The position numbers and the translations under genes are program-made. From Patescibacteria group bacterium (GTDB taxonomy: Bacteria; Patescibacteriota; Dojkabacteria; JAHIVN01): 64,000 nt of DNA. The stretch is taken from NCBI GenBank assembly GCA_043816305.1, contig JBDRHZ010000001.1:839-64838 (forward strand), given 5' to 3'. Below the pieces are notes generated by a model, which was not told where the DNA came from, did not search any database, and saw nothing but the letters and a program-made list of their open reading frames with translations. Positions 1,384-42,195 of the stretch are shown here, piece by piece. Within the stretch, counting starts at the first letter, position 1; every line of letters starts with the position of its first letter.

Positions 1384-1455
1384 GCGGAGGTAGCTTAATC
1401 GACAAAGCTCTTCTTGTCCAAAGAAGCAATACAGGTCCACAACCTGTCCTCCGCT
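1384..1455 (+). tRNA. non-canonical tRNA-like cloverleaf, anticodon-position UCC (Gly-like)
   Basis: The geometry is a perfect 7/2/4/8/4/1/5/7/5/4/5/7/5/7/1 cloverleaf and all four stems are fully Watson-Crick: GCGGAGG/CCTCCGC, GCTT/AAGC, CTTCT/AGAAG, ACAGG/CCTGT. The loops are atypical. The anticodon loop TGTCCAA has G at position 33. The D-loop AATCGACA has no GG. The T-loop TCCACAA has no TTC. No CCA is encoded. Confidence 0.55.
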
Positions 1456-1486
1456 CATTGACATTATCTCATAGATTATCAGAAAG

Positions 1487-4915: not shown

Positions 4916-6127
4916 ATGAAACGCAACATCACAATCTACTACATCACTCGGGTTTTTGTTGGCCTTCGATTCATCATCCCTGTCTGGGTAGCATTTTTTC
5001 TGCGAATAATCACTTTTGAGCAGATGGCCATCGGTGAAGTAGTAGTCTTTCTTGTCGGCACCTTATTCGAACTCCCGTCAGGCGTCCTTGCTGATCTCAT
5101 CGGACGGAAACTTACTGTGGCAATTGGACTTATCGTCCAAGGACTTGGTTATGTTCTTGTAGCTTATGCTACTGATTTCCAAAGTTATCTAATTGCATTT
5201 TCCATTTCTTCCATAGGTGGAAGCTTTGTGTCCGGGGCAGAAGAAGCGCTCATTTACGATTCTCTCAAACAAATAAAAAAGCTAAATCTCTATTCAAAAG
5301 TGAAATCTATCGAGACAACTATTTACAGAGTCTCTCTATTTGCTGGAACAATTCTCGGAGGGTATCTTTATGATATCAGAGCACTCCTCCCATACGTACT
5401 GACAGGAACAACATTGATCGTAGCTGGAGCAGTATACTTCTTATCCCGCGAACCGAAAATCGATTCGGAGAAGTTTTCTCTGAAAAGCTACTTTAGAAAT
5501 TTCAAACTCGGCTTTATGGAAAGTTTTAAAAATAAAAGAACTACATATACATCAATTTATTATATATTGATCTTTTCTGGGGGACTTTTGCTCATGTCCT
5601 ACTTCGAACAGCCTTACAGCAAATGGCTAGGGTTTAATGAGATTGAGATCGGCTGGATCTTTGGTGCTTTGACTCTGATCAAAATTGTCACCGTCCTATT
5701 TGCAACAAGAATCGAAAAGCTGTTTGGTAATAGGATAAACTTTCTGCTGCCCTTGCTGACAGGTCTGATTCTCATATCGTCAGCTCAATTCAAGATATGG
5801 GGTCTAGTCATACTCACTGTGGAAAATATTCTTCTAGCCTACCGATTTATTTTCACGCAGAAAATGTATAACTTAAGAATCGATTCCAAGTACAGAGCAT
5901 CTGCTATTTCAACGCTGTCTATGTTTAACAACTCTATCTATCTGATCCTTGTCTGCGGTCTATCAAAGATACTTACATTTGATAATATCGGCTACTCGTT
6001 TAATGTCATCGGGATAATGTTTCTGTTGGCAGCAATTTTAAGCTTAGTGATTAATCGCAGGTATAAATCTGATCAAAGGTGCTCAAGGACTTATTCGATC
6101 AGATTCCATAGCAATACAACAACATAG
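4916..6127 (+). CDS. MFS transporter
   Basis: 403 aa with about 11-12 hydrophobic helices. The loop motif GVLADLIGRK after TM2 is typical of the major facilitator superfamily. Confidence 0.8.
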   Translation: MKRNITIYYITRVFVGLRFIIPVWVAFFLRIITFEQMAIGEVVVFLVGTLFELPSGVLADLIGRKLTVAIGLIVQGLGYVLVAYATDFQSYLIAFSISSIGGSFVSGAEEALIYDSLKQIKKLNLYSKVKSIETTIYRVSLFAGTILGGYLYDIRALLPYVLTGTTLIVAGAVYFLSREPKIDSEKFSLKSYFRNFKLGFMESFKNKRTTYTSIYYILIFSGGLLLMSYFEQPYSKWLGFNEIEIGWIFGALTLIKIVTVLFATRIEKLFGNRINFLLPLLTGLILISSAQFKIWGLVILTVENILLAYRFIFTQKMYNLRIDSKYRASAISTLSMFNNSIYLILVCGLSKILTFDNIGYSFNVIGIMFLLAAILSLVINRRYKSDQRCSRTYSIRFHSNTTT

Positions 6128-6179
6128 CCATATAACAATATAAAAGCTTTTAGTCTATTTTACTTCTTAACTTTATAAA

Positions 6180-6557
6180 ATGCTCAAAAACATCGACTGC
6201 GTTCTCATCTGGACAGATAACCTGGAAGAGATGCGAAAATTCTATTCTGAGACACTTGGCATGAAGGAAATGCTTGAGATGAATCACCCCAAGGATACGG
6301 GAATTCTATATGAGTTTGCAAGCGGACCTCAGTTCTGGATCGGATTGCATAGTAAAGTGAAAGGAGAAAATCAAGACTCGGCGAGGCATATGATCAACTT
6401 CCTGGTCGATAGTGTCGAGAAAACTTATCAAGAATTGAAGTCAAAAGGGGTGAAGTTTGTAGCAGAGCCTTTTGAAGCTCCTACAGGTGGAAGCTTCTTT
6501 GCAACATTTGAGGATCCGGATGGAAATCTCCTGCAGTTGTGGAGCAAGAAAAAGTAA
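6180..6557 (+). CDS. VOC/glyoxalase-bleomycin resistance family protein
   Basis: 125 aa with the N-terminal L(I)WTDNLEEMRKFY and C-terminal FEDPDGNLLQL motifs of the vicinal oxygen chelate fold. Confidence 0.75.
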   Translation: MLKNIDCVLIWTDNLEEMRKFYSETLGMKEMLEMNHPKDTGILYEFASGPQFWIGLHSKVKGENQDSARHMINFLVDSVEKTYQELKSKGVKFVAEPFEAPTGGSFFATFEDPDGNLLQLWSKKK

Positions 6558-6592
6558 TCTATACTAACAATTAACATTTAATAACAAGACCA

Positions 6593-7513
6593 ATGAAAAT
6601 ATACATTGTCGGTTCGGGTGGGGTCGGCGGGTACTTCGGAGGAAAGCTTGCAAAGACTGAAAATAGTGTAACATTCCTGGCAAGAGGTAAACACCTGGAC
6701 CAGCTGAGATCAAAAGGATTAGTAGTAAACGCTGTGGACGGAAGCTTCAAGATAAAGAACCCGAATGTAATAAGCAGGATTTCAGAGATAAAAGACCCTG
6801 ATTTCATCTTCTTCTCGGTGAAAACCTACGATACAAAAGAAGTAGCACAAGAATTATCAAAGGTAGTGCGTGAAAAGACTATTATTATCACATTTCAGAA
6901 CGGCACAGAGAATGACGATGAGATCAAAAAGTATATCAGCGGTTGCAATATTTACCCCGGCCTCGCTTATATCATTTCAACAAAAGAAAAGGCAGGAGTG
7001 ATAAACCAAACCGGCGGACCGAGAAAAATCATATTCGGCGATCGCGATAATAAGGATAATGAAAATCTAGAAGAAATTGCCAGCTTGATGAGAAAGTCTG
7101 GAATAGATGCTGTAGTATCTGACGATATAACAAGAGATCTGTGGAAAAAGTACGTATTTATTAACGCATTTTCGGGTATGACAGCAATCTGCAGGACTCC
7201 AATCGGGAAAGTTCTTGAAGATGATATTACGTCATCACTTTACGAAAGATGCGTCCGAGAATCTATCGAAGTTGCTAAGAAGCTTAGGGTGAATCTTCCG
7301 GCAACTATTTTTGAGGACGCTATGACTCTGAGCAGAAACTTTGAGGCAGCCTCCAAGTCTTCCCTACTCGTTGATATTGAAAGTGGAAGAAAGAATGAGA
7401 TTGAAACACTGAATGGAACGCTTGTAAGATTGGCACAGAAATTTGATATTGACACACCGATAAATGCTCTGATCTATGGCTCTATTAAGCTAAGTAGTGA
7501 TGTTATTCAATAG
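6593..7513 (+). CDS. panE: 2-dehydropantoate 2-reductase (ketopantoate reductase)
   Basis: N-terminal Rossmann motif MKIYIVGSGGVGGYFGGKLA. The C-terminal SKSSLLVDIESGRKNEIETLNGTLV matches the ApbA/PanE signature. Confidence 0.85.
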   Translation: MKIYIVGSGGVGGYFGGKLAKTENSVTFLARGKHLDQLRSKGLVVNAVDGSFKIKNPNVISRISEIKDPDFIFFSVKTYDTKEVAQELSKVVREKTIIITFQNGTENDDEIKKYISGCNIYPGLAYIISTKEKAGVINQTGGPRKIIFGDRDNKDNENLEEIASLMRKSGIDAVVSDDITRDLWKKYVFINAFSGMTAICRTPIGKVLEDDITSSLYERCVRESIEVAKKLRVNLPATIFEDAMTLSRNFEAASKSSLLVDIESGRKNEIETLNGTLVRLAQKFDIDTPINALIYGSIKLSSDVIQ

Positions 7514-7598
7514 AAAAGCTATAAATTTGAGGAATAATATCTTTGCTCCGTTCTGATTCTTCTGCTATATTAATCTTGATAAACTTAGTTTCCTAGTC

Positions 7599-8441
7599 AT
7601 GAAGATCAAAAAGGTACTACTCCGAACGTCTTTTTTTACCATTGTTTTTGTTTTTCTTGCTACATTTATAACAGGAGGAGAACAAAGTGATCAGGTACAG
7701 ACACTTCTCGGAGTCTCCTCATTTATTTTTGGCATCTTTCTTGCCTTTTATACTGCAAACAGCCATGGTAGATTTAACGATGTCATGAAGGGGCTTCGTA
7801 TAGATTCCGGAATTCTTAAATTTATATACCTTTCGTCTAAACTTTTTCCCGAACAAGTGCAGGAACGTATCAAGACGCTAATAGACAATTACCTGATCGA
7901 ACAGCTGGATTATTTCCTCTATGACTTCGATAAAAGCCAGAAACAGCTAGATGATCTGTTTGAATATATTCTCTTTCTCAAACCGGAGACGAAAGAACAG
8001 CAGACAGCATACGATAATATGATCGATGAGATGAACGAAGCCACCAAGAACAGAAAACAGGTTGAGTCAAATGTAACTGCACATCTTTCAATTTTCGAAT
8101 GGAGCATTCTGATTGTACTGCTCGTAATCATTCTCTTCTGTCTTTTCTATATAAATGATAGCACTATAATCTCCATACTGCTCACAACAATGCTTTCAAC
8201 TGCGTCGGCAATTATGCTTCTGACACTATACGACCTTGACTCCCTCAGATGGCAAGAACAGTATAGGATCTGGGATCCGCTCCAAAGACTCTTCCGTGAG
8301 ATGAATCTTCTACCCTATTATCCAGATGCTGCAATTGCAAGTGGAAGGATAAGACCTTTAAAGGGAAAGGTCAGAATTGCTCATTATCCAAATAAATATC
8401 CGGATATGAGTGGAAAAGAGATCGAGGAAACGGAAATTTAG
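7599..8441 (+). CDS. integral membrane protein, unknown function
   Basis: 280 aa with two N-terminal and two C-terminal hydrophobic helices around a soluble helical segment. Confidence 0.6.
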   Translation: MKIKKVLLRTSFFTIVFVFLATFITGGEQSDQVQTLLGVSSFIFGIFLAFYTANSHGRFNDVMKGLRIDSGILKFIYLSSKLFPEQVQERIKTLIDNYLIEQLDYFLYDFDKSQKQLDDLFEYILFLKPETKEQQTAYDNMIDEMNEATKNRKQVESNVTAHLSIFEWSILIVLLVIILFCLFYINDSTIISILLTTMLSTASAIMLLTLYDLDSLRWQEQYRIWDPLQRLFREMNLLPYYPDAAIASGRIRPLKGKVRIAHYPNKYPDMSGKEIEETEI

Positions 8442-8486
8442 TAGTCTCACTCATTAACTCAAATATTGCAAAAATAAGCATAGAGG

Positions 8487-9407
8487 TTATATTAATCTTT
8501 CTAACTTTGCTTCGATCACATCCTTCTGTTTCTTGACTGAGACGACCCCTCTTTCGATAGCTTGCCTGCATCTTTTAGTAAATGTATATCGGAAATCTTC
8601 AACTGGATTTATTCCTGCAAATGGTCGTATTGAAACAATATTATCATTATTAGAGAATACTGATGACTTTCTAGAAAGATCAATATTTATTATTAAGGCA
8701 TTTGGGAAAATACAGCGTGCAATCTTGACAGGATTCTTCCAGTTATCTGAATAATCACTTGCGTCAACCATTTCTGCAACTCGCTGGTCCTGTTTATCGA
8801 CAAACTTTAGGGGACTAACTCTATAGATCATACTGCAGGAAGCCCGAACCCAGGAAGCCACCGGTTCACTGCCCCATCCGAGAACTGCTCCTTCATCCAA
8901 CTGATAAGCCACGACTATTTCGGGTATTCTCAACTCTTCAAAAGTCTCTGCTCCCCAGCCTCTCACCAAGTCTTCCAAAGGCTCCATACTCACTAGCTGA
9001 TCTGTTCGACCGATATCCAGCTTTACAAGGTTTCTCCACCATATGCTTTTCTTCGCCTCTTCCTCCAACTCATCAGGACTCCAGCCGCAGCAAATAGCAG
9101 CTCCGGCAAATGATCCTCCACTGCTTGAAACAACTGCATCTACCTTTAAATCAGTGTTTTTAGTCTCATTAGTTTTACTTATAATCATATGAAGCTCCCT
9201 ATAAGCTCCAACTTGGGCAAATGCTTTCATAGCACCGCCAGAGAGAACTAAGACTATAGCTTTACGTGCTTTTAGGATTACTTGATTGATAGATGATGGA
9301 ACTTGAGCATCTTTTATCCAATTTTCTCTCATGTTCTCCTTATCATCACCTATCAATACCGGATCCAAAACTGGATAGTCATATTTTCTTTTTTTCATAT
9401 CCTGCAT
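8487..9407 (-). CDS. patatin-like phospholipase domain protein
   Basis: The glycine-rich oxyanion motif VLSGGAMKAFAQVGAYREL is followed by the nucleophile-elbow-like VSSSGGSFAG. The first ATG (MQDMKKRK) is at 9407, whereas the track start at 9455 is a TTG. Confidence 0.6.
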   Translation of the reverse strand: MQDMKKRKYDYPVLDPVLIGDDKENMRENWIKDAQVPSSINQVILKARKAIVLVLSGGAMKAFAQVGAYRELHMIISKTNETKNTDLKVDAVVSSSGGSFAGAAICCGWSPDELEEEAKKSIWWRNLVKLDIGRTDQLVSMEPLEDLVRGWGAETFEELRIPEIVVAYQLDEGAVLGWGSEPVASWVRASCSMIYRVSPLKFVDKQDQRVAEMVDASDYSDNWKNPVKIARCIFPNALIINIDLSRKSSVFSNNDNIVSIRPFAGINPVEDFRYTFTKRCRQAIERGVVSVKKQKDVIEAKLERLI

Positions 9408-34402: not shown

Positions 34403-35584
34403 CTATTTCTTTCTAAGTAACTTCTCATAAACATTCTCTACATCTTTATCGCCTCGTCCCGAAAGATTGATCACAACCACATCGCTCTTCTTGTACTTGC
34501 TTCTATTCTTCAATAAATATGCTACCGCATGAGCCGATTCGAGAGCAGGTATGATCCCTTCCAATTGGGAGAGTTTCACAAAAGCATTGACTGCTTCCTT
34601 ATCTGTTGCCTCACCCAGCGTTAATCTCCCATTCCCCTTCAGCATACTTAATTCTGGACTGACTCCAGGATAATCAAGACCGGAAGCAGCACTATACGAT
34701 CCCTTTATCATGCCATCTTTGTTTTTCATAACTAGGGTTCTAGATCCATGAATCTCACCGGTCTTTCCTGTACCTAGTACTAAACCATGTCTTCCTGATA
34801 AACGTCCTTTTCCTGCTGGTTCAACAGCCACTAATTCTACACTCTCTTTGCTAATGAACTTGTAGAATGCTCCTGTAGCGTTGCTTCCTCCACCTACACA
34901 GGCAATGATAGCTGTAGGCAATCTTCCCTCCGCTTTCATAAGGTGAGCATATATCTCCTCACCTATGACTTTTTGAAAGTCACGAACCATAGTAGGATAG
35001 GGGTGAGGACCCACAGTAGAGCCTAGTAAATAGTATGCAATTTCCACCTCCTTTATGTACCCTTGTATTGCAACATCAATCGTATCCTTAAGAGTTCCCT
35101 GCCCTTGTGACACAGGAACAACTTTTGCACCAAGCACTTTCATCCTGTACACATTCGGTTTCTGAGCCTCAATATCTCTTGCACCCATGTAAACATCACA
35201 GTTCATCCCGAAATAAGCAGCAATTGTAGCTGTAGCAACGCCATGCTGACCTGCACCGGTTTCAGCTATTACTTTCTTTTTGCCTAAATGTTTTGCCAAT
35301 AGTCCTTGTCCTACAACATTGTTAATCTTATGTGCACCGGTATGATTTAAATCCTCACGCTTCAAATAGACCTTACATCCGACCTCTTTTGACAAACGTT
35401 CAGCCAAATAAAGCAGGCTAGGCCTGTTTGCGTAGTTTTTATACAATTCTTTCAATTCGTGCTGAAACTTCCTTTGTTTCTTCAACTTCTCATATTCCTT
35501 TGCAAGATCAAGTAAAACATTCTTGAGTTCAGGAGGTAAATAGATACCGCCAAATTCACCAAAGTAACCGTTATTAGTTTTCAT
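34403..35584 (-). CDS. trpB: tryptophan synthase beta chain (no trpA in window)
   Basis: Contains FGEFGG, LNHTGAHKINN (PLP Lys), ETGAGQHG and GGGSNA. Confidence 0.95.
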   Translation of the reverse strand: MKTNNGYFGEFGGIYLPPELKNVLLDLAKEYEKLKKQRKFQHELKELYKNYANRPSLLYLAERLSKEVGCKVYLKREDLNHTGAHKINNVVGQGLLAKHLGKKKVIAETGAGQHGVATATIAAYFGMNCDVYMGARDIEAQKPNVYRMKVLGAKVVPVSQGQGTLKDTIDVAIQGYIKEVEIAYYLLGSTVGPHPYPTMVRDFQKVIGEEIYAHLMKAEGRLPTAIIACVGGGSNATGAFYKFISKESVELVAVEPAGKGRLSGRHGLVLGTGKTGEIHGSRTLVMKNKDGMIKGSYSAASGLDYPGVSPELSMLKGNGRLTLGEATDKEAVNAFVKLSQLEGIIPALESAHAVAYLLKNRSKYKKSDVVVINLSGRGDKDVENVYEKLLRKK

Positions 35585-35602
35585 GTAAAGATTATAATAA
35601 GT

Positions 35603-35645
35603 AAAAAATCCCGCTTTTTATGAGCCTCTGGCTCTAAGCGGGATT
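35603..35645 (-). terminator. intrinsic terminator between trpS and trpB
   Basis: The minus strand reads AAUCCCGCUU-[AGAGCC AGA GGCUC AUAA]-AAGCGGGAUU followed by UUUUUU. It ends about 20 nt before the trpB ATG. Confidence 0.7.
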
Positions 35646-35775
35646 ATGTTTGATAATTAAGCGTTCTAATCTAACCCCGCCAACGAGATCTTGTCCACCA
35701 GACTATTTTTTGAATGTAAGAATTGTCGTTCATAATAAAATTCCTAACTTAATGCTATATGCTGTTAGCTGTTTT

Positions 35776-38019
35776 TTATCTCTTCCTAAAACTCAACTCA
35801 TTCTCAATACCAATCAGATCATATACCTCGTCTAATGCTTTGTTCGCATACTCGTTTGCCCGCTCAGCACCTTTCTCAAGAATATCTTTTGCCAGTTTAA
35901 TATTACCCTCAATTTCTTTTCTCTTCTTTCGTGCCTCCTCAAAACACCTTTTATGGGCTTTAACCAGTTTCTCCTTCACCTCGACATCTCCGACCTTACC
36001 TTCTCTATATCGCTTCTTCAAGTCGTTAACTTCATCTTTATTATCATTCAGCAGATCGTGATATATGAAAACCGGATTACCTTCGACCGTCCCCGGATCA
36101 GAGGCGCGTTTCCGATTTGGATCAGTAAAACACTTCGTTATTTGTTCTTTGATAAGTTTCTCATCATCGAAGATTCCGATCACATTGCCCAGGCTTTTGC
36201 TCATTTTTCTTTCTCCGTCAGTTCCTACTACTTTTCCCGAATGGCCGCTACTGATTAGTGGTTCGGGAAGCGGGAAAAAATTGTCGGGATAGACTTTATT
36301 AAATGACTGAGCAACATCTCTTGCCAGCTCCACGTGCTGCCGCTGGTCTTCACCAACTGGTACACCGTCCGGCTTATAAAGAAGAATGTCCGCAGCCATC
36401 AGAATCGGATAGTTGAAAAGCCCCATGTTAATAGTCTCCGCAGAAACCCCCTTTGCCAGCTTATCCTTAAAGGCATGCATCCTTTTTAAGTAGCCAAAAG
36501 GAATATAATTTGCCAGGACAACTGCAAGCTGACTGTGAGCTGGAACATCTGACTGACGGAAATACGCACTTTTGTTTGGATCAAGACCTAGCGCTATGAA
36601 ATCGAGAATGTTACTTGTAATGTTTTCTTCCAATTTCTTCTTATCCTGAACAGTTGTCAGAGCGTGCAGATCTGCCACGAAGTAGAAGGAATTCTTTACT
36701 GATACTTGTAGATCCATTTGCGGCTTCACTGCTCCAAAGTAGTTTCCAATGTGAAGGGCATTCCCGCTTGGAGTAATGCCTGACAATACAGTTTCTACTT
36801 TGATATTATCTGCATCCTGCCTGTGGGGGTTTGGAAATGTCACATCAATTACTTTATACTTCCGACTCCCAAGGAACTTCATGATATTCTCCTTATCAGT
36901 TTCAATGGCCCCACTCCTAGTAGCAGAACCAGTGATGACTCGGTCCATATACATGACTGCATCATCTGCATAGAGTTCGACTTTATCGTCAAGCAGAAAT
37001 GGGGTTAAGAGTCCTTCTTTAAACCCAAGCTTCTTAACTTCATCAGGACTGCACATTTCAACATTTTCCAACTTTAATACTTGCTTCAGACGAACATTGT
37101 CAACACTTCTGTCATCCCTTCGAAGCAAAGCTATGTATCTCTTACCGTCCCCTTTAAACAACAGTGTTCCTAGCCCTTCACGATACTTCATACCGAGAGC
37201 TCGAACTTGTTCATCTAGGTTTAGGCTGTCAGTACCACTATTTAGTACCTTATACTTGATTTTGTACGAATCAAGTTTTTTTGTTATTTTTTCTAGCATC
37301 TTTCTGTCAGAATTTCTTATTGTTGTATTTGAAACGCTAGGTTGGTTATTTACTACCTCTGATTCAATAAAATGACCTATTCCTCCACCGTATAGACCTT
37401 TAAGGTTATTTCCGACTTCCTCAACAGCTCGCCTCACTTCTATGGTATCTACTCCTTTTACTTTACAACCTAATATGAAAACTGAAGTTGTAGCTTCATC
37501 GATCTTCTGATAAACACTATCTCTATAGAAAAATCTCGATAATATTTTCTCATTATCTGCCATGACAACTAACCCTGCAGGTAGGTACTCTACACCCCCA
37601 CCCAGAGGTTTGAATTCCTCACCTTCTTCGCTAAATCTTAATACTATATCCCCAGTAATTGAGTTTGCATCGAATACACCAAGTGGGATGAATGTTTGCA
37701 GGGCCACTAGATTTGTTACATCAACAACATTGTTTATCCGTGGGAACTTTCCCGATTCTAGATATCGTCGATAAAGCCTTTCTACAGATGGAATATTAGT
37801 TTCTGGGTCAAATCCCAACTCTTTATAGAAGTCTCTATACAAAGTAAACATCCTACTATTAAAGAACTCTTCCGTCCTTACTTCTTCTATCTTAAATTCC
37901 AACTTATCCTCAATAAGCACATTTTTCCCCTTCTGAACTATGATCTCCTTAACAGGCAAAAGAACAACATCAACATCTGGGAACTTATTCCTTACTTTTT
38001 TTGATATTAAAAATTTCAT
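35776..38019 (-). CDS. trpS: tryptophanyl-tRNA synthetase fused to N-terminal B3/4-like and YbaK-like (editing-type) domains
   Basis: The 747 aa protein has three parts:
- aa ~1-215 carry a PheT B3/4-type pattern (RINNVVDVTNLVALQTFIPLGVFDANSITGDIVLRFSEEGEEFKPLGG...LVVMADNEK).
- aa ~240-385 carry a YbaK/aminoacyl-tRNA deacylase pattern (RYIALLRRDDRSVDNVRLKQVL...GLLTPFLL).
- aa ~400-747 are a class I TrpRS (TPSGNALHIGNY, KMSKS). Confidence 0.85.
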   Translation of the reverse strand: MKFLISKKVRNKFPDVDVVLLPVKEIIVQKGKNVLIEDKLEFKIEEVRTEEFFNSRMFTLYRDFYKELGFDPETNIPSVERLYRRYLESGKFPRINNVVDVTNLVALQTFIPLGVFDANSITGDIVLRFSEEGEEFKPLGGGVEYLPAGLVVMADNEKILSRFFYRDSVYQKIDEATTSVFILGCKVKGVDTIEVRRAVEEVGNNLKGLYGGGIGHFIESEVVNNQPSVSNTTIRNSDRKMLEKITKKLDSYKIKYKVLNSGTDSLNLDEQVRALGMKYREGLGTLLFKGDGKRYIALLRRDDRSVDNVRLKQVLKLENVEMCSPDEVKKLGFKEGLLTPFLLDDKVELYADDAVMYMDRVITGSATRSGAIETDKENIMKFLGSRKYKVIDVTFPNPHRQDADNIKVETVLSGITPSGNALHIGNYFGAVKPQMDLQVSVKNSFYFVADLHALTTVQDKKKLEENITSNILDFIALGLDPNKSAYFRQSDVPAHSQLAVVLANYIPFGYLKRMHAFKDKLAKGVSAETINMGLFNYPILMAADILLYKPDGVPVGEDQRQHVELARDVAQSFNKVYPDNFFPLPEPLISSGHSGKVVGTDGERKMSKSLGNVIGIFDDEKLIKEQITKCFTDPNRKRASDPGTVEGNPVFIYHDLLNDNKDEVNDLKKRYREGKVGDVEVKEKLVKAHKRCFEEARKKRKEIEGNIKLAKDILEKGAERANEYANKALDEVYDLIGIENELSFRKR

Positions 38020-38063
38020 TTCAACAAGATAAAAAATAAAGTAAAAATAACAGATTTCTCAAT

Positions 38064-38137
38064 TGGCAGGTCTGCCTAGATTCGAACTAGGAACGACGGT
38101 TTTGGAGACCGTAATGATACCCTTTCACCACAGACCT
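38064..38137 (-). tRNA. trnW: tRNA-Trp (anticodon CCA), CCA-encoded
   Basis: The minus strand reads AGGTCTG-TG-GTGA-AAGGGTA-TCAT-T-ACGGT-CTCCAAA-ACCGT-CGTT-CCTAG-TTCGAAT-CTAGG-CAGACCT-G-CCA. It has a canonical GG D-loop and a TTCGAAT T-loop. Confidence 0.95.
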
Positions 38138-38186
38138 AAAAAAACGCCCTCAACTAAACACAGTTTCCTGTATCTAGATGAGGACG
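38138..38186 (-). terminator. T-box leader intrinsic terminator
   Basis: The minus strand reads CGUCCUCA(38186-38179)...UGAGGGCG(38152-38145), an 8-bp stem with one G-U, followed by U7 (38144-38138). The U-tract abuts tRNA-Trp nucleotide 1. Confidence 0.8.
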
Positions 38187-38416
38187 CTTTTGCATGGTGC
38201 CACCTCAATTTATAAATAGATTGCTCTATTTAACTTGTTAACCGACTCCACAGATATCGGTCTGAAGTAAGATTACGGACTTCTTCCGGAAAAGGCTACT
38301 TGTTTGAACTTTCACCTCCCAGCGTATTCTCTTTCAAGAATTCACCAGGCCCATTCTCCTGATTCCGACGCTTTTACTTATTAAATCCCGCTTAGCGGGA
38401 TAAAGTATTCAATTGC
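38138..38416 (-). promoter_or_regulatory. T-box riboswitch leader (Trp-type by context) preceding tRNA-Trp and trpS
   Basis: - T-box/antiterminator: AAAUUGAGG-UGGCACC-AUGC-AAAA-GCGU-CCUC (38211-38180), that is helix GAGG/CCUC, a 7-nt bulge UGGCACC, and helix AUGC/GCGU.
- The alternative structure is the terminator listed above.
- The bulge UGGC is complementary to the tRNA-Trp 3' end GCCA.
- A Stem III-like hairpin reads AAAUAGA-GCAA-UCUAUUU (38231-38214).
- Stem I distal-type motifs are AGAGA (38332-38328) and GGUGAAAG (38316-38309).
- UGG-purine triplets are available as a specifier, but which one is used is unresolved. Confidence 0.8.
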
Positions 38417-38422
38417 AGAAGA

Positions 38423-38452
38423 ATCATATCACAGACAATCTAGCTTTTGCAA
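38423..38452 (-). promoter_or_regulatory. candidate promoter of the T-box/tRNA-Trp/trpS transcript
   Basis: The minus strand reads TTGCAA (38452-38447), an 18-nt spacer, then TATGAT (38428-38423). Confidence 0.4.
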
Positions 38453-38777: not shown

Positions 38778-39389
38778 ATGCAAAAAATAATTTTAAAATA
38801 CTTAAACATAGGAAATGCTGCACTTTTATTAATTGGAATAACTTTATGCATAGTACTTGCAGCTGATAATTACTGGATCAAAGACTCATATAGCTATCTC
38901 GGAACATATCCGAGGGGAAGGATTCCTTTCACCTCTCTTCTGATAATTCTAGCTGTTATCAACGGAGTATTTATATTTCAAACAATTGCTGCTTTCGAAA
39001 GAGCATATTCCAGTAAAATAATTCCACATTCCCGGATGAAGTCATTAAGAATCATATTCACATTGGATTTCATATGTCTCTCGATCGCCGGTATAATACC
39101 GATGAACCAGCAGCTTTCGTTTCATACTGTAGGCGGGATTTTGTATTTCGCACTTTACCCATTTGGAATCTATATATTTAGTAAAATTACGCAAGAAATA
39201 AATCCTAAATTTTCACGTATTTCCAGGAATATCAGCCTCTTGTATTCAATTGGAAGCATCTTTTTCCTGCTTGCTTTTCGAAGTGTCGTTCCAGTTGAGA
39301 CCTTCTGTATCATGCTTATCGCAGTTTGGACCTTTTTCTTGAATCGATTAGTTCTAAACATCTTTCGCTCACAGAAGAGAGTTAAATAA
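38778..39389 (+). CDS. integral membrane protein, unknown function
   Basis: 203 aa with about 6 hydrophobic helices. Confidence 0.6.
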   Translation: MQKIILKYLNIGNAALLLIGITLCIVLAADNYWIKDSYSYLGTYPRGRIPFTSLLIILAVINGVFIFQTIAAFERAYSSKIIPHSRMKSLRIIFTLDFICLSIAGIIPMNQQLSFHTVGGILYFALYPFGIYIFSKITQEINPKFSRISRNISLLYSIGSIFFLLAFRSVVPVETFCIMLIAVWTFFLNRLVLNIFRSQKRVK

Positions 39390-40587: not shown

Positions 40588-42195
40588 CTATTTGCCAATT
40601 TCTTTCCAGTCTGTATCCTGAATATAAATCTTCCCATTCTTTAAGCACCACTCCGCCTTTGTAAGTTCTGAGGCAATATCGGCAACATGACCATCCGTCG
40701 AAAACACATCATTTGACATGAGTTTATCCATCAATCGAAGAGCTGCTTTCGAAAGAGTGCCGTCAATTCGATACTCATCAAGCTGCTTGTTACCATCAGG
40801 CGTCATATGCCTTGCTACTATTTCTTTACCTTGAATCTCAATAATAACAGTACTCATCGGGTCCGGTCTGCAAAATACTCTGTTTTTGTATCTTGAGATA
40901 ATTTTGCTCGCCTTTGCATAGTTTGATTCATAAATCTGTGCACAGTTCGAAATGGTTGTTAAGTAACCAGGTTTTTTGCCAATTCTTTCTGCGAAATCGA
41001 ATTGAAGCTTTCTGAGTGCAAAAGCATTCCTCGGCCAGGCATCAAACATATCATTACTTCTGAAATATGCCGTTAAGTGAAGCTTTTTGCTACGATAAGT
41101 AAATTGAAGCAAGGCCATACACGGCACATTTCCGCTGCCAGCTTTTTGCTCCTGATTATTCACTGTCTGCTGTTTGCTGTACGCTGTTTGCTTCTTGTCA
41201 CTCATCCAGCCTTCCTTCACATTATCTACCCAAGGATTCCAGATAGCGACAACCATCCCTCTATCCTCGTGATAGCGCTTAAATTTATCATACACCTCCT
41301 CAAGCTGATCGAGTCCTGACTTAACTGATCGCTGATTGCTGACAGCTGAAAGCTTCCTCAATAACTTCTGGTTTTTCTCTGCATTAAACTCACCAATAGG
41401 TAATCCAACCGGATAAGAATAAATTCTCTCCCCATAGTTATAACTCTCGCTACCCTTACTCGGATTGAAGAAGTCTTTGTAATAAATCTCTAGATCTTTC
41501 TTGCTGAAATCAAAGACGTCGGAAAGCTCTGGATCATAGGGGCCTTCCTTTTCGACAACTGTGACAACATTTACCAGTTCCTTTATCTCACCAATCTTGA
41601 TCATCCCCTTCCTCGATCCAAACTTCATTATTTTTCGAAGAATTTGAACCCATGCCTCCCATATATAGTCAGCTCTGATGTTAAATGTAGATTTCTCAGA
41701 TGGGAATTTTTCAGCAGCACTAAATACTGACTCATTAAATTTCCTTGGCTTTGCCCAGGGCTTAGCTGATTTGCTGATTAGCCGATCAGCTATTTGGCTT
41801 ATGTCTGTCTTTCCCCGCACATCTATAACTTCCACATTCTTCCTAAAGTCCTCAATGACCGATTTATCTATCTCCTTTTGAATTTCACACTTCTTGTCAC
41901 CTACAACTCTATAATCATCGTCAATACCATTCTTCATAAACTTCATAAATGCCTCACCGCTTTCACTCCTATCTGTTCCGCAAAGGACAATTTTGTTAAT
42001 AACAGGATTTGCAAGAATATTTCTAACGATGAAGTTGATACCTCGCTTTGAATAAAGCTGTCCTCCCAAAGCATAATTTGCAGTCTTCAGCTCATCGAGA
42101 ATTTGATTTTTTGGCGTCCAAAGCGTACATATCCCGACATTGCTTTTGGGATTTCCTATACTTAAAACGTCTTTGTAGTAAATAGGCCAATTCAT
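40588..42195 (-). CDS. thymidylate synthase (ThyA)-like protein with N- and C-terminal extra domains
   Basis: The core has VPCMALLQFTYRSKKLHLTAYFRSNDMFDAWPRNAFAL, a ThyA-type active-site Cys and RS-D motif arrangement. It carries a ~150 aa N-terminal domain and a ~100 aa C-terminal domain of unclear family. Confidence 0.6.
   Translation of the reverse strand: MNWPIYYKDVLSIGNPKSNVGICTLWTPKNQILDELKTANYALGGQLYSKRGINFIVRNILANPVINKIVLCGTDRSESGEAFMKFMKNGIDDDYRVVGDKKCEIQKEIDKSVIEDFRKNVEVIDVRGKTDISQIADRLISKSAKPWAKPRKFNESVFSAAEKFPSEKSTFNIRADYIWEAWVQILRKIMKFGSRKGMIKIGEIKELVNVVTVVEKEGPYDPELSDVFDFSKKDLEIYYKDFFNPSKGSESYNYGERIYSYPVGLPIGEFNAEKNQKLLRKLSAVSNQRSVKSGLDQLEEVYDKFKRYHEDRGMVVAIWNPWVDNVKEGWMSDKKQTAYSKQQTVNNQEQKAGSGNVPCMALLQFTYRSKKLHLTAYFRSNDMFDAWPRNAFALRKLQFDFAERIGKKPGYLTTISNCAQIYESNYAKASKIISRYKNRVFCRPDPMSTVIIEIQGKEIVARHMTPDGNKQLDEYRIDGTLSKAALRLMDKLMSNDVFSTDGHVADIASELTKAEWCLKNGKIYIQDTDWKEIGK

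Follow-up and report, generated by a model that had tools for sequence, protein, structure and literature searches.

A leader on the minus strand of a 64,000-nucleotide stretch of contig JBDRHZ010000001.1 (the window, from the genome of a Dojkabacteria-like member of the Patescibacteria) is, on comparative evidence, a genuine Trp-specific T-box riboswitch. The gene order on this strand is T-box leader, terminator, tRNA-Trp(CCA), a gene for a fusion protein containing tryptophanyl-tRNA synthetase (TrpRS; trpS) and a TrpB-like gene. Probably, the T-box acts by transcription attenuation and controls the gene of its own ligand, tRNA-Trp, together with trpS. An earlier note, made from the letters alone, had proposed a Trp T-box whose terminator abuts its cognate tRNA-Trp gene upstream of the TrpRS gene, and the comparative evidence bore this out. 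The leader anatomy, the degree to which it is conserved and covaries, and the order of genes in four lineages were seen directly in the loci.

The leader and its covarying relatives

The elements of the leader from Stem I to the terminator are as follows.

38321..38372, minus strand: ultrashort Stem I, the minimum-free-energy fold of the region
38372-38368 with 38325-38321, minus strand: C-stem of Stem I, AGCGU with ACGCU
38365-38364 with 38343-38342, minus strand: K-turn of Stem I, GA with partner GA
38363-38358 with 38349-38344, minus strand: 6-bp helix of Stem I
38357-38350, minus strand: 8-nt specifier loop AGAAUGGG
38351..38353, minus strand: specifier codon UGG (Trp), then the purine G38350 directly before the helix, on which it stacks; the codon complements the anticodon CCA of the adjacent tRNA
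38341-38326, minus strand: extra hairpin AUUC-loop-GAAU on the 3' side of the K-turn, placed after the second GA and before the returning C-stem strand
38290..38320, minus strand: Stem II, GGGAGG (38320-38315) with CCUUUU (38295-38290)
38301-38296, minus strand: S-turn word AAGUAG, aligned by Rfam to the Stem II AGUA motif
38264..38288, minus strand: Stem IIA/B pseudoknot, IIA CGG (38288-38286) with CCG (38278-38276) and loop GAAGU (38283-38279) with ACUUC (38268-38264)
38278-38273, minus strand: F-box-like word CCGUAA, aligned to the RF00230 model
38240..38262, minus strand: linker hairpin GACCGAU...GUCGGUU, covarying in 8 of 9 pairs, its loop UGG not conserved
38213..38232, minus strand: Stem III, an 8-bp helix with GNRA loop GCAA, covarying in 7 of 8 pairs
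38179..38207, minus strand: T-box sequence and antiterminator, A1 UGAGG (38207-38203) with CCUCA (38183-38179), bulge UGGCACC (38202-38196), A2 AUGC-AAAA-GCGU (38195-38184)
38138..38191, minus strand: intrinsic terminator, a 23-bp hairpin (38191-38146, -31.9 to -33.5 kcal/mol) with U7 (38144-38138)

At the Rfam gathering threshold only tRNA was reported in the window, and no T-box was found in the window or in 16 related loci. In E-value mode, RF00230 matched 38345-38177 over model positions 1-219 with 38 bits, the gathering score being 93 (E = 1e-6 when 901 nt were searched, 7e-5 for all 64 kb of the window). The alignment deleted 74 Stem I model positions, and the low score is explained by the ultrashort Stem I. 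Homologous leaders, which were collected by scanning one genome per species with a TrpRS alignment (80 loci, few of them with a leader) and from look-ups of close TrpRS relatives (L081-L096), scored 26-63 bits with RF00230, all under gathering; those at 53-63 bits had E-values of 1e-9 to 1e-11. From the window and L081 an nhmmer profile was made, followed by a covariance model (R1) that recovered nine further homologous leaders with E-values from 1e-5 to 1e-55. A single metagenome scan with a 25-base gapped pattern yielded two loci only, L086 and L087, and at L083-L085 and L090 the upstream sequence was too short or unrelated. The ten homologous leaders come from Patescibacteria and one Dehalococcoidia, and the R1 scores and downstream genes of the family are given below.

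L081: 208 bits, tRNA-Trp and fusion gene
L088/L089: 156 bits, tRNA-Trp, racemase-like gene and fusion gene
L087: 108 bits, TrpD-like gene
L091-93: 93 bits, DUF554-trpS (L091)
L013: 80 bits, trpS
L086: 64 bits, trpS
L004: 61 bits, trpS
L020: 45 bits, trpS
L050 (Dehalococcoidia): 27 bits, trpS

A further leader, at L019, is divergent and gave no Rfam match at E<=0.05, its T-box-like character being read by eye only. At L087 the ultrashort Trp T-box (262-455) stands ahead of a 499-aa open reading frame (ORF; 516-2015) that is weakly like TrpD and glycosyl transferase family 3, under the Pfam cut-off. The L020 locus carries a second T-box-like leader (8319-8505, minus strand; Rfam 56 bits, R1 20 bits) upstream of a prolyl-tRNA synthetase gene (6011-8200, minus strand), and so the T-boxes of this Dojkabacteria genome are not confined to Trp.

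MAFFT by itself aligned the middle of the leaders, which varies in length, wrongly and was replaced by a model-guided alignment, made also in a nine-sequence version. With ten leaders, 96.9% of the cells were paired, as compared to 32-47% when the 3' partners were slid by 1-3 columns; compensatory changes were present in 31 of 40 pairs, and none of 500 shuffles matched any of these measures. A hand alignment of seven leaders, checked base by base against the loci, had 309 of 326 cells paired and additionally showed covariation of the pseudoknot, A1 and A2. Both alignments were fitted to the structure, which inflates the percentage of paired cells, and the relevant comparison is therefore that with the slid controls, together with the many double changes. 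The sequence and structural features that define a T-box were all found except for the distal platform of Stem I and a score at the Rfam gathering level. The earlier note had made its proposal dependent on a significant RF00230 hit and on a Stem I and specifier conserved in homologous leaders; the match is significant, though sub-gathering, and Stem I with its UGG specifier is conserved in ten leaders with strong covariation.

Stem I, as judged from fold and alignment, consists of a K-turn with the specifier loop as its immediate cap, that is, it is of the 'ultrashort' type. The homologous leaders follow a common plan: the first strand of a short C-stem, then a bulge of 2-3 nt and GA, then a helix of 5-6 bp closed by a loop of 8-9 nt (AGAAUGGN), and on the way back the second helix strand, GA and the other half of the C-stem. 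The K-turn pattern itself (C-stem, 2-3-nt bulge, GA...GA, C-stem) is shared by the window and 8 of 10 relatives, the window having the extra hairpin on the non-bulged strand. This hairpin is also present in L081 and L088, with a longer one at the same spot in L019, and it might help a decision made without the platform. The Stem I helix showed compensatory changes in five of six pairs among the ten leaders and at all six positions in the hand alignment. The loop word GAAUGG is invariant in all ten homologous leaders, and L019 has UUGGAA.

Three UGG-purine words had been put forward as specifier candidates and all three are present, but only the first, in the loop AGAAUGGG at 38357-38350, stood up to the comparison, since the other two are not conserved: CUGGGA is CUGAGA in L081, and UGUGGAG, in the loop of the linker hairpin, is CAACUGAG there. 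The assignment of AGAGA and GGUGAAAG to the AG bulge and distal loop of Stem I had to be dropped. The words exist, but they are not conserved in L081, and their positions, which are the loop of the clade-specific extra hairpin and the Stem II loop, rule them out as a platform. No AG bulge and distal loop (the tRNA-elbow platform) were found in the window, and the relatives all have the 5-6-bp helix capped by the specifier loop.

The Stem II helix covaries in all five pairs, for example GGAGG/CCUUU as against UUCC/GGAA and CUUC/GAAG. The IIA/B pseudoknot was paired in 32 of 35 cells of the hand alignment of seven leaders, with compensatory changes at all five positions, and IIA is either invariant or covarying. 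The F-box-like CCGUAA and the GNRA-capped hairpin resembling Stem III, both of which had been pointed out before, are present at 38278-38273 and 38232-38213. The spacing of 13 nt between the Stem III loop and RRGGUGG is constant in the window, L081, L013, L020 and L004.

Over 38211-38180 the antiterminator reads AAAUUGAGG-UGGCACC-AUGC-AAAA-GCGU-CCUC, as claimed earlier, and it is the minimum-free-energy fold of 38211-38176 (-7.2 kcal/mol). Its segment GGUGGCACC (38204-38196) is invariant in nine of ten leaders, and A1 and A2 covary. The competing terminator with U7 is real, but its hairpin is longer than had been described (23 bp, 38191-38146), and the bases of the A2 and A1 3' strands serve again in its 5' strand. 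At about -32 kcal/mol it is far stronger than the antiterminator, which is the usual T-box relationship. In the homologous leaders each terminator differs in sequence, overlaps its own antiterminator and ends in U6-U8; even the window and L081 have terminators of unrelated sequence, each overlapping its own antiterminator. The match of the bulge UGGC to the 3' GCCA of tRNA-Trp (discriminator G73 plus CCA) was also correctly recognized, and L019 has a bulge UGGU beside a tRNA-Trp with A73. Specificity for Trp is supported by the invariant GAAUGG, the Trp-related downstream genes and the UGGC/G73 match.

Transcription of tRNA-Trp and trpS

The following elements frame the leader on its two sides.

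38423..38452, minus strand: sigma-70-like promoter-like site with extended -10, from a promoter scan; TTGCAA (38452-38447), 18-nt spacer, TGnTATGAT (TATGAT 38428-38423)
38386..38400, minus strand: 5' hairpin UCCCGC-UAA-GCGGGA at the leader start, the stem kept in L081 with another loop (ACCCGC-AAAA-GCGGGA)
38064..38137, minus strand: tRNA-Trp gene, anticodon CCA, A1-U72, G73, encoded CCA; found by ARAGORN and by the Rfam tRNA model (57.3 bits)
38020..38063, minus strand: U-rich spacer of 44 nt without a hairpin, with one weak promoter-like match TTGAGA-18-TATTTT

The promoter is kept in the ortholog L081 as TTGCAT-18-TATGAT and sits in a divergent intergenic region, the neighbouring gene lying at 38778-39389 on the plus strand, and the leader therefore starts a transcription unit. 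The predicted start is near 38416, which would give a leader of ~280 nt (38416-38138, minus strand). The 6-bp 5' hairpin, found in the window and L081 only and preceded by a conserved stretch CAAUUGAAUACUUUA, is possibly a 5' stabiliser. As had been noticed, the first base of tRNA-Trp, 38137, directly follows the U tract, with 0 nt between. The position of trpS just behind the tRNA was right, the spacer being 44 nt (ATG at 38019); the gene, however, encodes a fusion and is no plain trpS.

The order T-box, tRNA-Trp, trpS was found in four lineages: the window, L081, L088/L089 and L019. In L081 the T-box is followed after ~110 nt by tRNA-Trp and the fusion gene (TrpRS 87% identical). In L088/L089 the distance is 130 nt and a racemase-like gene stands between tRNA-Trp and the fusion gene (TrpRS 40% identical), and in L019 the T-box-like leader is followed after 335 nt by tRNA-Trp and four genes including two TrpRS-type genes (TrpRS 42% identical). 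Seven other leaders have the T-box immediately ahead of trpS, or of a gene that trpS follows, and trpS was for this reason taken as the ancestral target. In the window trpS can be reached only by read-through of the tRNA gene, and its only T-box lies upstream of the tRNA. Given that the ancestral target stands behind the tRNA, and given the zero spacing between tRNA and terminator, co-transcription of tRNA-Trp and trpS from the T-box leader is likely.

Several observations weigh against this interpretation. The RF00230 score is far under gathering (38 vs 93 bits). Transcriptional T-boxes generally require a long Stem I with an elbow platform, the short forms being translational (PMC7583486); this platform, held necessary for transcriptional T-boxes (PMC7583486), is missing here, which leaves a fast co-transcriptional capture of the tRNA unexplained. 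The bulge of L088 is UGGU although both local tRNA-Trp copies have G73, so that the pair would be a wobble and not Watson-Crick. The 110-335 nt between terminator and tRNA in L081, L088 and L019 leave room for an independent promoter, and the window has a 9/12 promoter-like match in the spacer between tRNA and trpS. Finally, if the tRNA-Trp gene is the sole source of the ligand, its own T-box would demand basal read-through.

On a rival reading, a real T-box would add only a minor starvation read-through, tRNA-Trp (and trpS) being transcribed mainly from an unrecognised promoter of their own that overlaps the terminator or, in the orthologs, lies in the spacer; the riboswitch would then hardly govern the tRNA. 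As a rule, tRNA genes are driven by strong promoters belonging to them, the long distances in L081, L088 and L019 would accommodate one, and two 9/12 promoter-like matches were found in the L088 spacer. L023 and L062, moreover, have tRNA-Trp upstream of trpS with no T-box, and a sole tRNA-Trp gene behind its own T-box poses a bootstrap problem. In the window, however, there is no spacer at all to house such a promoter; the consensus scan found no promoter-like site between 38423 and 38137, and 38260-38137 is free of any promoter-like match. No conserved promoter can lie inside the terminators, since that of the window bears no relation to that of L081. When the window, L081, L088 and L019 were scanned for an independent tRNA promoter, the promoter-like matches were no more numerous than in shuffled controls, such consensus scans being weak evidence either way. 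The leader promoter, by comparison, is a good sigma-70 match, which implies that such promoters are recognisable in this organism. A separate promoter as the main source is therefore considered unlikely.

A T-box governing tRNA-Trp only, with trpS transcribed from the spacer site TTGAGA-18-TATTTT (38062-38033), is quite improbable. The site is a 9/12 match with correct spacing just 3' of the tRNA, and a very short leader is conceivable because trpS has no obvious Shine-Dalgarno sequence. But the match is not conserved, the corresponding -10 in L081 overlapping the start codon, and chance alone would give about 3.7 such matches per kb. The seven related leaders with a T-box ahead of trpS identify trpS as the ancestral target, and its product is a Trp-free TrpRS, as expected for a starvation-induced protein. 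Lastly, a leader that is no cis switch here, being either a relic after insertion of the tRNA or a trans-acting terminated RNA such as a tRNA-Trp sponge, would account for the low Rfam score, for a Stem I without the platform thought essential for transcriptional T-boxes (PMC7583486) and for a tRNA locus restless in evolution, with nested or decayed copies in L088 and L081, but is very improbable, as every helix is intact and covarying even between the window and L081, the antiterminator/terminator overlap is kept with different sequences, the arrangement persists down to 40% TrpRS identity, and short-Stem-I relatives directly before trpS have canonical terminators, which marks the short form as a functional family type.

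The tRNA-Trp genes of the related loci showed some unusual layouts. In L088 (1490-1725; also L089) the gene is split in the anticodon loop by a 161-nt insertion (1524-1684). Inside this insertion lies another tRNA-Trp, complete in itself (1590-1662), whose acceptor stem is extended by 9-10 bp. Joining the two outer halves gives a perfect tRNA-Trp with CCA, and no Rfam intron match was found. L081 has the same nested layout at ~2712-2968, with decayed outer halves. A conserved three-part module was observed at L081:6695-8733 / L097:118-2252 and at L019:1815-3842. Its first part is a tRNA-Trp of archaeal/eukaryotic type (G1-C72, A73), its second an ORF of ~300 aa without Pfam match (42% identical between the two loci), and its third a divergent paralog of the class I synthetases of Trp/Tyr type (46% identity from locus to locus, about 25% to the window TrpRS). 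The module may be a second TrpRS/tRNA-Trp pair; tblastn found no copy of it in the window.

Downstream genes, a probable second Trp sensor and the proposed mechanism

Behind the tRNA gene the unit continues with three elements.

35776..38019, minus strand: TrpRS fusion, 747 aa, with N-terminal B3/4 (PF03483), YbaK-like tRNA_edit (PF04073) and TrpRS (PF00579) domains
35596..35733, minus strand: second Trp-sensing element before trpB, a leader ORF with an antiterminator/terminator pair
34403..35584, minus strand: TrpB-like tryptophan synthase beta chain, 393 aa, Pfam PALP; named tryptophan synthase subunit beta in source records

The protein encoded at 38019-35776 (minus strand) is 100% identical to a 'tryptophan--tRNA ligase' of a Patescibacteria metagenome-assembled genome, the next relative, from Candidatus Dojkabacteria, being 87% identical. 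Its B3/4 domain is PheRS-beta-like, and shorter fusions of an editing domain with TrpRS (about 500 aa) are widespread in Patescibacteria. The fusion contains no W in 747 aa (P about 3e-4) and TrpB none in 393 aa (P 0.013). With a background of 1.1% W over 44 long ORFs of the window, these are two of only three Trp-free ORFs. The absence of Trp fits products needed when Trp-tRNA is scarce.

The leader ORF MNDNSYIQKIVWWTRSRWRG (35733-35671, minus strand) comprises 20 codons and a stop, has a Shine-Dalgarno sequence and lies between the trpS stop at 35776 and the trpB start at 35584. A 10-bp antiterminator (35681-35672 with 35646-35637) has its 5' strand in the last codons of this ORF, and the competing terminator is AAUCCCGCUU...AAGCGGGAUU plus U6 (35645-35603). 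The end of the peptide, ...IVWW(T/M)RSRWRG before the stop, is kept upstream of trpB in the L081 genome (L097:2285-2374). At L102, a further locus from Dojkabacteria, two WW leader ORFs stand ahead of trpB (2207-2257 and 2368-2454), and the trpB loci L098 and L100 have a TrpR-like gene in place of the WW leader ORF. The trpB leader appears to be a ribosome-mediated WW leader-peptide attenuator, and the operon appears to unite two sensors, one made of RNA for uncharged tRNA-Trp and one that relies on the ribosome for charged tRNA-Trp.

Two further features of the window lie apart from this unit. An ORF of 535 aa at 40588-42195 (minus strand) has MtrA-like, thymidylate-synthase-like and pterin-binding (DUF4346) domains, and ARAGORN reported a tRNA-Gly(UCC) at 1384-1456 (plus strand) that the Rfam tRNA model did not report even at E<=0.05 on the whole window.

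From this arrangement we infer tRNA binding, read-through, co-transcription and processing in the following sequence. The K-turn and the 6-bp helix would offer UGG in the terminal loop to the anticodon of tRNA-Trp, with Stem II (S-turn) and the IIA/B pseudoknot supporting decoding and with no tRNA-elbow platform. An uncharged tRNA, once bound, would pair through its free GCCA end with the UGGC bulge and stabilise the weak antiterminator, the formation of which would block the stronger terminator built from the same bases. RNA polymerase would then pass U7 straight into the tRNA-Trp gene and on into the Trp-free B3/4-YbaK-TrpRS fusion gene, and RNase P and 3' processing would release the tRNA from leader and mRNA. 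Transcripts going further would face a second checkpoint, the WW leader-peptide attenuator, before the Trp-free trpB. A drop in tRNA-Trp charging would in this way cause a joint rise of the tRNA, the synthetase and, via the second gate, the Trp-forming enzyme. Somewhat doubtful, yet conceivable, is the extension of this attenuation mechanism to a closed loop, in which the bacterial-type tRNA-Trp would come mainly or only from transcripts passed by the T-box, tRNA, synthetase and TrpB would be co-induced with positive feedback on the ligand, and the decision would be taken without an elbow platform.

Comparison with known systems

T-boxes have been described for Firmicutes, Actinobacteria, Chloroflexi and Deinococcus-Thermus (TBDB preprint). 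In a text library of 8 million papers, itself incomplete, no paper was found that treats the T-box riboswitch and Patescibacteria together, and none, in the same incomplete library, in which the gene next after a T-box encodes a tRNA. Three things are new for the T-box family: the phylum, the combination of a terminator with a Stem I that lacks the platform, and a regulated unit that includes the cognate tRNA gene. A platform-less Stem I with a terminator contradicts the generalisation on the elbow platform (PMC7583486) and provides a natural test case for fast tRNA capture. Annotation at the Rfam gathering score misses all these leaders, and covariance model R1 could recover them.

With the canonical class I T-boxes (RF00230; Bacillus subtilis tyrS, trpS, glyQS) the leader shares the K-turn at the base of Stem I and the codon-plus-purine specifier, the Stem II S-turn, the IIA/B pseudoknot, the F-box and Stem III, as well as the 7-nt UGGN bulge in a two-helix antiterminator, the competing terminator with its U tract and an aminoacyl-tRNA synthetase as target. 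In contrast to these, it has no upper two thirds of Stem I (AG bulge, distal loop). The host, furthermore, is a member of the Patescibacteria and not of the Firmicutes, and the terminator is followed first by the cognate tRNA gene and not by a protein-coding one.

The class II ileS T-boxes of actinobacteria (Mycobacterium tuberculosis ileS; PMC7778990, PMC7583486, PMC11297988) also have the specifier in the terminal loop of a short, platform-less Stem I, together with Stem II and the IIA/B pseudoknot, which probably compensate for the missing platform. They differ from the window leader in that the latter has a terminator with U7 instead of a Shine-Dalgarno sequestrator, with no Shine-Dalgarno sequence or start codon, and is followed by a tRNA gene. 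The amino acid is Trp and not Ile, and the window, L081, L088 and L019 have the extra hairpin in the K-turn region. Since a class II-like decoding module is joined to a class I terminator, the T-box family described here is a hybrid.

The element before trpB can be compared to classical trp attenuation (E. coli trpL; Trp_leader RF00513), with which it shares an ORF with tandem Trp codons, the end of which overlaps the antiterminator strand, and a terminator with a U tract. Unlike E. coli trpL, it has no Rfam match, precedes a stand-alone trpB and sits inside a T-box-controlled operon.

In the thrU-tyrU-glyT-thrT-tufB operon of E. coli, tRNA genes stand upstream of a gene for a translation protein in one transcript, from which RNase P and 3' processing free the tRNAs. 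The order of tRNA and then translation gene is shared with the window; the E. coli operon, however, has no riboswitch, whereas here the tRNA would be the ligand of the attenuator. A ligand gene behind its own switch, if true, would be a feedback circuit not described for riboswitches, with predictions for tRNA homeostasis in minimal genomes.

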